From Spirochaetales bacterium (GTDB taxonomy: Bacteria > Spirochaetota > Spirochaetia > Treponematales > UBA12059), in assembly GCA_016928955.1 (NCBI GenBank), contig JAFGJV010000054.1:1-60554 (forward strand): 60,554 bases of DNA, in the 5' to 3' direction. This document shows, piece by piece, positions 45,792-60,554 of this stretch (the first letter of the stretch is position 1; the number at the start of each line of letters is the position of its first letter). The notes below the pieces were generated by a model. That model was not told the DNA's origin. It saw only the letters and a list, made by a program, of their open reading frames with translations, and ran no database searches. A program made the translations under genes and the position numbers.

Positions 45792-45825
45792 GAAAGCGCC
45801 CCGCCTGTCCAGCTAGGCGGGGCGC
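45792..45825 (-). terminator. Terminator after the nrdJ 3'-end duplicate
   Basis: 11-bp stem GCGCCCCGCCT (45796-45806)/AGGCGGGGCGC (45815-45825), then TTTCC on the minus strand. Confidence 0.7.
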
Positions 45826-45838
45826 CCAGGATTTTTAG

Positions 45839-46015
45839 CTACAACCGGTGGTACTCCCACAGGTCTCTCGTCGGCCCTGCTGGCCGACGGTTCGGTTCCG
45901 CTTGAGCGGAACCAAGCCGGGATTGAACCTGAAATGCGAGACCACAAGCCAGCGTACAGCCGCCTTTTCCAATCAACTACAACCGGTGGTACTCCCACAG
46001 GTCTCGCATTTCAGG
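45839..46015. repeat. 138-bp insertion duplicating the nrdJ 3' end, with an internal inverted copy of the target
   Basis: 29-bp perfect direct repeat at 45839-45867 and 45977-46005; 16-bp perfect inverted repeat at 45928-45943 and 46000-46015. Confidence 0.9.
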
Positions 46016-49000
46016 CAGGTTCCGTTGCGCACCAGGGTCAGGTGGCCGCATATCGGGCAGGGGTCGCCCTCGTAGCCCTTCATGCGTGCGCTACGCACCT
46101 CGTCGCGGGCTGTTTGGGCCGTCTGGGCGGGGGCGCGCTTGGCTGCCGCGGCCGCCTGGTCCTCGGCGTGCCGTTCCGCGGCCATGCGCGCCTTGCCGTT
46201 CTGCGTGGCCGTGGCTATGAGGTCCTCCGGTTTGACCTGGCCAAGGTCATACCGGTCCTGGTAGCTGATGGCCAGGTCCCTGAACACGTAGTCCAGGACG
46301 CTGGTGGCCATCTTGATGTACTCATGGCCGCGGACCATGCCGTTGGGCTCGAAGCGGCTGAACGTGAACGCGTCGACATACTCCTCAAGCGGGACGCCGT
46401 ACTGCAGGCCAAGGGACACGGCTATGGCAAACGAGTTGAGCAGGCTCCTGAAGGCCGCCCCCTCCTTGTGCATATCCAGGAAAATTTCCCCGATGCGGCC
46501 GTCGTCGTATTCTCCGGTGCGGATGAAGACGGAATGGCCGCCGATCTTCGCCTTTTGGGTGTAGCCCATCCTGCGGTTGGGCAGGGGACGCCGTACGCTG
46601 GTAGGCGCCTTGTCCGACGGTTGGGGGGTAGGCTGGGATTCAGCCTGCACGGCCAGAATGCTCTCAGCCAGCGCGTCGTCCATGGCCGCGATGGAACTCA
46701 GGGGCTGGGACAGCTTGGATCCGTCGCGGTACAGGGCTATGGACTTGAGCATGCTCTGCCATGCCAGCATGTACGCGCCCTTGACGTCTTCCACCGTGGC
46801 CGAGTTGGGCATGTTGATGGTTTTCGAGATTGCCCCGGACACAAAGGGCTGGGTGGCGGCCATCATGGCTATGTGCGCTTTCCACTGGATGGAGCGGGTG
46901 GCGTTGCGGCCTGAGGGCGTGGCCGTGTCGAACACCGCGTAATGGGCCTTCTTGAGGTGCGGCGCGCCTTCTATGCCCATGGTGCCGCATGCCCAGCCCT
47001 CGGCCGCCGCGATATCCTGGATGGAGAAGCCAAGAAAGCGGAGTATGTCAAAGCCTGGCTCGGAGCGCACGGCCGCCGTCGCGCCCACGGCGTCGCAGGC
47101 TTCAGCGCCCAGGGTAAAGGGATTGAAGGCCGAATCCAGGCTCATGGCGTTGCGAACGGCCGCGTCCGCCTTGAGAATGGCCTCCTCGGGCAGGCCCTTC
47201 TCGCGCAGGGCTGCCAGCGGCACCCCGGGCGCCCCTTCCAGGGTCCCCGTGCCAACCATGTACGTGCGGATGTCTTCTATCGCCTCGTCGGAATATCCCA
47301 GGGCGCGCAGGGCAGGCAGCACCGAATTGTTGACAATCTTGAAATAGCCGCCGCCGGCCAGCTTCTTGAATTTGACCAGGGCAAAATCGGGCTCTATGCC
47401 GGTAGTGTCGCAGTCCATGAGCAGGCCTATGGTGCCCGTGGGCGCTATGGCCGTGGTCTGGGCGTTGCGGTAGCCGTGTTTTTCTCCCAGGGCGACAGCC
47501 TGGTCCCAGGCGTCGCGGGCGGCGGCCGCCAGCTCGGCCGGGGCTTTGCCGTCGGCTAGTCCCTGGGGTTTGACCGACAGCCCCTCGTACTCCGACTGGT
47601 CGGCGTTCCAGGCGGCCTTCCTGTGATTGCGCATGACCCGCAGCATGGACTCGGCGTTGGGACCGTAGGCGGGAAAGACGCCAAAGGCCTGGGCCATGCG
47701 CGCCGACTGGGCATAGGCCTCGCCGGTGGTGATGGCCGTCAGGGCGGCGGCCGTGGCGCGTCCCTCGTCAGAGTCGTAGGGCAGGCCCATGAGCATGAGG
47801 AGGGTGCCCAGGTTCGCGTAGCCCAAGCCCAGGGTGCGGTAGTCGTAGCTCTTGCGCGCTATCTCCTTGGACGGGAACTGGGCCATGACCACGGATACCT
47901 CAAGCACCGTGGTCCACACGCGTATGGCGTGGCGGTATGCGCTGTCGTCAAAACGCCGCGAGGCTTCGTCATAGAAGGTGGCAAGGTTGAGCGACGCCAG
48001 GTTGCACGCGGTGTCGTCCAGGAACATGTACTCCGAGCAGGGATTTGAGCCCCGGATCTCGCCGCCTGCCGGGCAGGTGTGCCAGTCGTTCACGGTGGTG
48101 TGGAACTGGAGGCCGGGGTCGGCGCATTGCCAGGCCGCGCGGGCTATCTTGTCCCACACGGCGCGGGCCTTGACCGTTTTCATGGTCTTGCCGCCCCGCC
48201 TCATGGTCAGGTGCCAGTCTTTGTTCTTGACCACGGCTTCCATAAAGGTGTCGGCCACTCGCACCGAGTTGTTGGACGCCTGCCCGGCCACGGTGGCGTA
48301 CGCTTCGCCCTCCCAGTTGGTGTCGAACACGGCGCCGTCCACGTCGGGTTCGCCCTCGGCCGCCCTCCTGAGGGTCTGGTATACGTAGGAACCCGGCACG
48401 CCAGCGTCCAGGGCCTGCTTGGCCGCCCGCTGCAAGGCCGGGTTCTTGTCGAACGAAAGCCTGTCCCCGGCCGGCACCGACGCGTCGGCGGCGGCGTCCC
48501 TGACCGCCACCGTGAAACGCCGTATGGCCTGGGACCCGGCGACCATGCTGGCTACCTTGTGCTCTTCCCCCGTTTTCCAGTCTATGAAGGTCTCTATGTC
48601 CGGGTGGTCCGCGTCCAGGATCACCATCTTTGCGGCACGGCGGGTGGTTCCGCCAGACTTGATGGCGGCGGCGGAGCGGTCGGCTATCTTGAGAAAGGAC
48701 AGAAGGCCGCTGGAAAATCCTCCGCCGGACAGGGGCTCGTTGAGGGCGCGGATCTTGGAAAAGTTGGAGCCGGTGCCCGAGCCGTACTTGAACAGGCGGG
48801 CCTCGCGCTCCACCAGGTCCATGATGCCGCCGTCGTTCACCAGGTCGTCCTGTACATCCAGGATGAAACAGGCGTGGGGCTGGGGGCGCTCGTAGGCGCT
48901 GGTGGACGCTACCACCGTGTCGGTCTCGGGATCGACGTAATAGTGGCCCTGGGCCGGCCCTTCCAGGCCATACACGGCGTGGAGCCCGGTGTTGAACCAC

Positions 49001-49437
49001 TGGGGGCTGTTGGGGGCCGCCATCTGGTGGGCGAGCATGTAGCAAAGCTCGTCGTAAAAAGCCTTCTCGTCGGCCTCAGTTTCGAAGTACCCGGCTTTTT
49101 TGCCCCACAGGAGCCAGGTGTAGGCCAGGCGGTGGAACACCTGGCGCGCGTCGTGCTCGCTCCCCTGCTTGGGAGACGGGCCGGCCATTGCCTGCTGTTT
49201 TTCCGGTACCCAGGCGCGCCACGCGTCGGCCTTGTCGTCGGGGACGCCTGCCTTGCGGAAGTACTTCTGGGCCATGATGTCAGTGGCTATCTGGCTCCAG
49301 GTGGACGGAACCACGACGCCGTCCATGCGGAAAGCCACGCGACCATCGGTGTTGCGTATTTCCGACACCCGTTTTTCCCAGGTGATGCCTTCATAGGGGC
49401 CTTTGCCGGCCTTGGTGAAACGACGTTCTATCTTCAT
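45973..49437 (-). CDS. nrdJ: Class II (adenosylcobalamin-dependent) ribonucleotide reductase
   Basis: [46 protein letters not shown]-terminal CxxC..CxxC..GCS. Confidence 0.96.
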
Positions 49438-60385: not shown

Positions 60386-60399
60386 CTCACGCGTTGTCT

Positions 60400-60528
<129 letters not shown>

Positions 60529-60554
60529 GTGAGCGGCTGGAGTGAGAGAACACG

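Follow-up and report, generated by a model that had tools for sequence, protein, structure and literature searches.

A small, very probably mobile cassette replaces the 3′ end of nrdJ in a spirochaete and carries an antisense copy of its own target

Introduction

Integrative elements such as e14 at icd, and the CIMEs, bring with them a replacement 3′ end for the tRNA, tmRNA or protein gene that they occupy, and such replacement ends are typical of integrative elements mobilised by tyrosine recombinases. Fungal mitochondrial endonuclease elements bring a foreign but functional C-terminus to a gene, and the Allomyces elements are GC-rich double hairpins; we know of no antisense arm in either. 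In IS110, target choice is encoded by the element and programmable, through a bridge RNA with split loops.

Target choice by DNA pairing is described for the IS200/IS605 elements, IS608 and ISDra2 among them, in PMC5934647 and PMC6006769, together with subterminal hairpins and an asymmetry between strands; the unit reported here is alike in hairpins and strand asymmetry and, if its arm is a guide, in target choice. IS608 chooses its targets via a tetranucleotide guide 5′ of a hairpin, and longer pairing has been engineered (PMC5934647). The REP, BIME and REPIN sequences and their RAYT proteins offer a second likeness, in GC-rich hairpins, dispersal, tandem amplification and a proposed single-stranded DNA circle (PMC3333891 and PMC6006769). 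TnpA-REP cleaves and recombines single-stranded BIMEs and is proposed to amplify them (PMC3333891), and REPs carry a GTAG-type foot (PMC6006769).

The locus studied here lies in a contig of a Spirochaetales bacterium (JAFGJV010000054.1, assembly GCA_016928955.1), of which the whole stretch of 60,554 nucleotides, called the window below, was analysed. A sequence-only reading of the window had proposed that nrdJ ends in a 138-bp, non-autonomous, site-specific element that rebuilds the 3′ end of the gene and carries an antisense copy of its own target. The present analysis follows up that proposal by comparison with relatives, with other genes and with the described systems.

Architecture of the unit at nrdJ

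The unit is formed by the end of nrdJ, which is neighboured by a spiro-SPASM gene in the window, and by the sequence immediately behind it. Its features, in the sense of the gene, are as follows.

45973..49437, minus strand: nrdJ, the target gene, an adenosylcobalamin-dependent ribonucleotide reductase of 1154 aa, above the NCBIfam PRK07562 and TIGR02504 cut-offs
46006..46015, minus strand: the 10 nt of nrdJ 5′ of the junction, not duplicated, complementary to the 3′ part of the arm; the junction was placed by cross-locus comparison
45973..46005, minus strand: in-gene replacement tail, the last 10 codons and the stop codon; 5′ end of the 138-bp unit
45944..45972, minus strand: variable spacer, here 29 nt as read from the sequence, differing in length among relatives
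45928..45943, minus strand: antisense arm, the putative guide, exact reverse complement of 46000-46015 (10 nt upstream and 6 nt of tail)
45916..45927, minus strand: linker that sets the 20-21 nt register from arm to hairpin 1
45892..45915, minus strand: core hairpin 1, from fold and cross-locus alignment
45869..45889, minus strand: core hairpin 2, from fold and cross-locus alignment; the unit ends 1 nt beyond, at 45868
45835..45867, minus strand: displaced original nrdJ tail, 33 nt with its stop codon
45796..45825, no strand assigned: native GC-rich hairpin behind the displaced tail, with arms 45796-45806 and 45815-45825; putative terminator

This layout rests on an exact direct repeat of 29 nt (45839-45867 and 45977-46005, with a spacing of 138) and an exact inverted repeat of 16 nt (45928-45943 and 46000-46015), with two hairpins between the repeats. 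The two nrdJ tails, 33 nt each with their stop codons, differ at 2 positions, both synonymous. Direct repeat, inverted repeat, spacer and hairpins were all described correctly from the sequence alone. The terminator proposed in the same description holds as far as a hairpin is present behind the second tail, but its role is putative, as a consensus scan called no terminator there (0 found). Across loci the units measure 113-180 bp, and in the alignment of loci the core runs from the linker through hairpin 1 and hairpin 2 to the displaced tail, which follows after 0-2 nt.

The unit is genuine and not an assembly artefact. An independent metagenome contig (L140) holds the same nrdJ unit with strain differences, 19 sequencing runs contain half or more of the words of the stretch, and in the 4 runs examined, which come from 4 studies, the unit is covered every time; this rules out the assembly error to which the sequence-only reading had allowed that the pattern might reduce. 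The nrdJ 3′ region folds with z = -6.7, none of 200 shuffles folding as well. Exact inverted repeats of at least 16 nt with a loop of 20-84 nt number 11 in the host genome and 0 in each of 5 shuffles, and tRNA or tmRNA elements with a similar layout account for 6 of these 11.

Replacement of the gene end and displacement of the old tail

A protein search of 61 genomes gave 30 nrdJ loci, 28 of them in relatives with a readable gene end. An antisense arm stands behind nrdJ in 19 of these 28, accompanied by a displaced tail in 11, and one locus (L006) is a syntenic empty site, with a downstream gene that is common to several carriers. Pattern scans gave 26 loci in a collection of species genomes (24 spirochaete and 2 labelled 'bacterium'), 9 of which duplicate earlier loci, and 20 further loci in metagenomes, about half of them repeats of others; the nrdJ loci are kin, so that all locus counts overstate independence. 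The sequence-only reading had said that a lack of any empty site or analogous element would point to a one-off template-switch duplication; empty sites exist, and analogous units are found at other genes.

The relation between the two tails is informative. Comparison of in-gene with displaced tails in 25 pairs, themselves non-independent through kinship, gives 108 synonymous codon differences and 8 non-synonymous ones; of single changes made at random, 22% are expected to be synonymous. The non-synonymous changes are located in the displaced copies. Within a pair the differences number at most 11 nt and almost all of them are synonymous; some Ser codons have switched between AGY and TCN. Because the differences are so overwhelmingly synonymous, both tails were formerly coding, and a plain target-site duplication would not give two once-coding, diverged tails. 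Moreover, among 31 loci that had been selected because their arm matches well, the Glu codon of the in-gene tail is matched by the locus's own arm in 30, so that tail and arm travel together and the crossover lies at the 5′ edge of the tail. The unit leaves nrdJ with a complete C-terminus, encoded synonymously, and moves the former tail further downstream. That the first copy is the replacement and the second the displaced original, as first read from the window, is borne out by empty syntenic sites, by decaying displaced tails and by a displaced tail at deoC that is cut at a newer junction.

Some loci carry several units. Mixed arrays of the orders A-B-A (L053) and 1-2-2-1 (L065) occur, and the order of units is swapped between the relatives L025 and L141, which fits repeated insertion at a site regenerated by each insertion. 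Together with the empty sites, these arrays and the change of order point to units having inserted repeatedly at the 5′ edge of the tail, and we consider it very probable that the unit is a mobile replacement cassette. In contigs of the four runs, out of 20 that contain the stretch, no excised or empty allele was found, as no join skips the unit. One 31-nt junction record in run X2 fits a circle, a tandem or an L140-type allele equally well. In run X6 the contig depth is 7 in the interior, 9 in the repeat and 2.8-2.9 in the flanks, which hints at a tandem dimer, although contig depth is no copy number.

A shared scaffold with other targets

The scaffold is defined by twelve cores picked by hand; compensatory changes occur in 13 of its 20 hairpin pairs, and pairing holds in 91.6% of cells, the structure having been derived from those same 12 sequences. 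Complete cassettes with gene-specific arm and tail occur at tdh, at a thiolase gene, at deoC (2 genomes) and at ychF (2 genomes). At nrdJ, the distance between hairpin 1 and the junction-pairing base of the arm is 20-21 nt in 26 of 46 units and 17-21 nt in 36 of 46. The same register, 20-22 nt, is kept in 6 of 6 units at the four other genes, where it was anchored by hand, while tail and arm lie between 38 and 70 nt apart. From gene to gene the dinucleotide at the junction changes; no fixed motif therefore sets the site.

At tdh the arm-type cassette is present in 1 of 23 parsed loci (30 retrieved), and L254 is a syntenic empty tdh site. The displaced tdh tail has three amino-acid changes and is followed by sequence resembling the empty allele of L254. 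At deoC an arm-less unit inserts at a junction of its own: it is in-gene in L096, where the tail of the other unit is cut at this junction, and the order of units in L178 is the reverse of that in L096. At galE a tail is duplicated without an arm. The empty sites and the displaced tail cut at the newer junction support the view, taken before any comparison, of a non-autonomous and site-specific element.

Three further tdh loci differ from this pattern. In L267 and L272 a duplicated tail starts near the same junction, and the insert holds a sense copy of the upstream target; L271 starts likewise and then reaches the contig end. The sense-copy inserts of L267 and L272 may form a second cassette class aimed at the other strand. 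At ychF in L088, the C-terminal codons within the gene have an unusually high T content and have lost their match to the arm remnant downstream, possibly a target escape through synonymous change.

Agreement between arm and target, and a proposed mechanism

By a loose criterion built on invariant bases, the arm is present in 40 of 46 nrdJ loci. At variable upstream positions outside the duplicated part, arm and host agree in 101 of 120 comparisons over 40 loci, against a mean of 69 and a maximum of 89 of 120 in 20,000 permutations; two misaligned rows count against the match in this test, and 17 loci were chosen by a pattern that fixes one position. Gene-specific arms and tails on a shared scaffold, the fixed register between arm and hairpin, and arrays of mixed units are all observed. 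Against a strict guide role stand the arm-less deoC unit and the galE duplication, the dispersed cores that have neither arm nor tail, and the mismatch in L157 (below). Mobility is well supported and guidance likely, the arm being in our judgement probably what sets the insertion site.

The following mechanism is proposed. The unit would be cut at the start of its tail and just after hairpin 2, and circularised. The 5′ half of the arm would hold the unit's own tail start and the 3′ half would capture the 10 upstream bases of the target, the arm probably pairing across the insertion site as single-stranded DNA. Binding of the hairpins and strand exchange would be the task of an enzyme provided in trans, most probably one of the HUH/Y1 type. 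As insertion at the 5′ edge of the nrdJ tail would rebuild a perfect target, units could accumulate, be recopied to the front and be trimmed, and the 10 upstream bases would probably be overwritten or perfected against the newest arm. We hold about evenly for and against the full reading, in which the 138-bp unit is a non-autonomous, likely single-stranded DNA element guided by its own arm.

One may instead suppose retro-insertion: processing of the nrdJ transcript would leave ends at the foot of the arm stem and behind hairpin 2, and a reverse transcriptase acting in trans would copy the product into the gene, which would co-convert the 10 upstream bases and randomise wobble positions. Several observations lie in this direction. 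Synonymous divergence among congeners is already raised in the three codons covered by the arm, from 0.23 upstream to 0.53 (0.54 in the tail) in genus g6 and from 0.17 to 0.42 (0.61 in the tail) in genus g11, but the g10 pair shows no such upstream rise. The proximal arm is a perfect fit to the host in 7 mixed arrays, in which a distal arm differs from the host, usually in the direction of the other synonymous allele at Leu and Lys codons; in L157 this is reversed, the gene-proximal arm mismatching the host at 4 of 10 upstream bases and the distal arm fitting, and in L025 and L141 both arms fit poorly. Divergence in the arm-covered codons and the fits within arrays together imply that the upstream bases turn over with the cassette, via co-conversion or via later perfection of the stem. 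Base composition at fourfold sites of the tails is close to random (A.28, C.32, G.24, T.15, with C at.76 upstream), but tails without a clear cassette are equally random, and randomised wobble positions were for this reason rejected as a mark of the cassette. One RNA run covers the unit, but only as contigs that may contain DNA, and the host genome holds no match to a reverse transcriptase. Retro-insertion is on this evidence unlikely.

The hairpin loops bear on the same choice. G..A-closed loops prevail on the gene-sense strand, with 23 GNA triloops against 6 on the reverse complement and 12 GNRA loops against 1, and neither UNCG nor UUCG loops, whose absence speaks against an RNA intermediate, occur in the core hairpins. 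Loops of terminators, a noisy control, gave 0 GNA triloops in 14, and neither strand is clearly favoured by folding energy. In DNA the GNA triloop is a particularly stable form, so that their presence in the gene sense leans mildly towards single-stranded DNA. Whether single-stranded DNA with HUH chemistry operates rather than RNA with a reverse transcriptase is for us an evenly poised question.

Dispersed cores

A core model (R1) matches the host genome only at nrdJ and tdh, both in its training set. Among 42 genomes of the family it matches in 10, with 11-32 copies in 8 genomes of the genera g9 and g11, and 88 of about 150 core matches were inspected as loci. Of 72 dispersed cores found by a regular expression, which did not flag the thiolase and ychF cassettes, 65 have neither arm nor tail. 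A second core subtype is found almost only at nrdJ.

Such dispersal invites the view that a REP-like double hairpin spreads by itself and sometimes captures a gene tail, the arm being no guide but a quasi-palindrome maintained by template switching, a process known to correct quasi-palindromes. It is in keeping with this view that most copies in the two genera are free of arm or tail, that the core sits in frame within the mnmE coding sequence of four g11 genomes (L159, L167, L194 and L210), that arm-less tail duplications exist, and that only the proximal arm tends to match the host. What the view cannot account for is the same 20-22 nt register with junction-spanning arms at five unrelated genes, and outside the two dispersal genera the core is found almost only at nrdJ. 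We therefore rate it as improbable, a shade below retro-insertion.

At four other loci (L081, L104, L107 and L108) cores lie within a conserved leader-like stretch, which may resemble a T-box, and three of the four adjoin seryl- or phenylalanyl-tRNA ligase genes.

Distribution

The element belongs to a family found within one spirochaete family. Across the phylum the nrdJ pattern, which is tied to this particular nrdJ ending, occurs in 2 of 301 genomes, both from the host's family. It has 0 matches in viral contigs, and of 16 matches to the core pattern there, none showed both hairpins and the cassette layout on inspection; blastn against phage and plasmid sequences gave nothing meaningful.

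So narrow a range, a strong fold on the mRNA strand, and the 8 of 28 relatives that keep an arm with no detectable displaced tail would all suit a host-selected, vertically inherited 3′-UTR structure, which would fold over the last codons to stabilise or regulate the mRNA and leave the tail copies as by-products. Synonymous foreign tails, mixed arrays of swapped order, empty sites and the presence of the tdh cassette in 1 of 23 loci would go unexplained, however, and we regard this possibility as very improbable.

Search for a mobilising enzyme

The guided cassette would need an enzyme in trans. The host genome gave no match to Y1, IS110 or DUF3800, and a Y2 search matched nothing, its control also matching nowhere; the host assembly consists of 59 contigs, for which reason mobile genes may be missing from it. 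Y1 genes are present in 30 of the 42 family genomes. At 35 Y1 and integrase loci there was a single modest core match (E 0.004) and no core-like flanks, and the 135 ORF pieces beside cores (44 and 91) include no transposase, integrase or reverse transcriptase family. RAYT-like Y1 genes were rejected as partners, since they are not flanked by the core at 30 Y1 loci of relatives; many of them (L112-L137) are solitary, up to 6 per genome, and have no REP-like flanks. DUF3800 was likewise rejected: the host lacks it, it occurs in 4 of 42 genomes, and neither a tRNA nor a direct repeat stands at any of its 4 loci. The published DUF3800 motifs are unrelated to the cassette. Behind each of three DUF3800 genes (L070-L072) lies one and the same conserved sequence of about 70 nt.

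The host does have 5 tyrosine recombinase genes, and its replacement 3′ ends recall the elements that such enzymes mobilise, but a shrunken integrative element of this kind, with attL and attR and now moved in trans as a mini-circle, is highly improbable, because no nrdJ locus holds a longer or integrase-bearing version such as the sequence-only reading had suggested looking for, or a further tail copy within up to 4 kb downstream, integrase loci are free of the core, junctions across genes share no core sequence, and retargeting by an antisense arm is no feature of such elements.

Comparison with described systems

The guided single-stranded DNA reading places the cassette near to the IS200/IS605 elements, from which it nevertheless departs. 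Their guide is a tetranucleotide at the hairpin foot (PMC5934647 and PMC6006769), whereas the cassette's arm, with its 13-17 nt, bridges the junction and stops about 10 nt short of hairpin 1; no tetranucleotide guide stands directly 5′ of the hairpin foot, the junction-pairing base being 20-21 nt away. Both hairpins lie at one end, a replacement tail is present, and there is no tnpA. Nor did a cognate TnpA gene with these hairpins at its ends come to light: the host gave no Y1 match, and 30 Y1 loci of relatives are free of core-like ends save for one modest match.

Unlike REP or BIME sequences, the cassette inserts site-specifically into coding 3′ ends with target-specific arms, and its arm is far longer and farther from the hairpin than the guides of either IS200/IS605 or REP. 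Many dispersed hairpin repeats, as expected of REPs, are seen in g9 and g11 (8 genomes, 11-32 matches), but the host has only 2. A GTAG or GGAG foot is absent from the core alignments, and no RAYT gene flanked by the repeats was found. The cassette may work like IS608 or TnpA-REP, yet it fails their defining tests.

With 3′-end-replacing integrative elements the cassette shares an incoming tail that restores the gene, a displaced old tail (replacement end and displaced original are both in place) and tandem arrays; it differs in its size of 113-180 bp, in having no integrase between att copies and no longer parent at the site, and in being re-aimed by a change of arm and tail. Compared with IS110, it has one contiguous arm and no recombinase, and the host has no IS110 gene; compared with the fungal mitochondrial endonuclease and Allomyces elements, it has no endonuclease ORF. 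A MITE was rejected because the inverted repeat is internal and pairs with the target, and the tails differ by up to 11 nt with nearly all differences synonymous; a diversity-generating retroelement was rejected because the host has no reverse transcriptase and the differences between repeats are synonymous. Rfam 15, including the DUF3800 motifs, gave no match at the gathering score and only chance matches below threshold on the cores. Strict multi-term searches of the open-access literature found no published description of the cassette. A family of tiny tail-replacing cassettes re-aimed gene by gene is apparently undescribed, a judgement on which the consensus diagrams of 224 motifs (PMC5737381) and the REP tables (PMC6006769) may bear.

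If the arm is the guide, the cassette would be a natural long-guide insertion system that works without RNA and without any protein specific to the target, and programmable insertion might then draw on its enzyme as a tool. Tentatively, and with rather less assurance than for the single unit, we picture a natural programmable, protein-less cassette with a fixed two-hairpin scaffold, an exchangeable cis guide of 13-17 nt and a replacement tail, which would land harmlessly in the 3′ ends of conserved genes, rewrite about ten upstream bases, shuttle tails between species and be mobilised by a possibly widespread DNA-guided integrase. How small hairpin repeats spread and choose their sites thereby becomes a testable question, and the search for the enzyme can start from five target genes, known empty sites, a constant geometry and a set of listed genomes. 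A further consequence concerns core genes, nrdJ among them: their final codons are replaced repeatedly, and inferences from codon usage or phylogeny at gene ends can be led astray as a result.

Units at tRNA and tmRNA ends

The sequence-only reading had mentioned small palindromic elements of this layout at tRNA 3′ ends. In the host, at least 9 tRNA or tmRNA ends (contigs C5, C10, C24, C27, C39, C40, C41, C42 and C46; loci L031-L040) do carry units of about 180 nt, in the order T-loop tail, often a terminator-like hairpin, antisense arm, hairpins and displaced tail. The layout is thus the same, but the scaffold is a different one, larger and AGGA-rich, which the R1 model does not match, and no paper describing these units was found. 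A unit of the tRNA/tmRNA-end type also lies in the window, at 60399-60554. Elsewhere in the host, contig C26 (16500-18100) contains imperfect, AT-richer repeats in an array, some of them inverted, that have no relation to the cassette.
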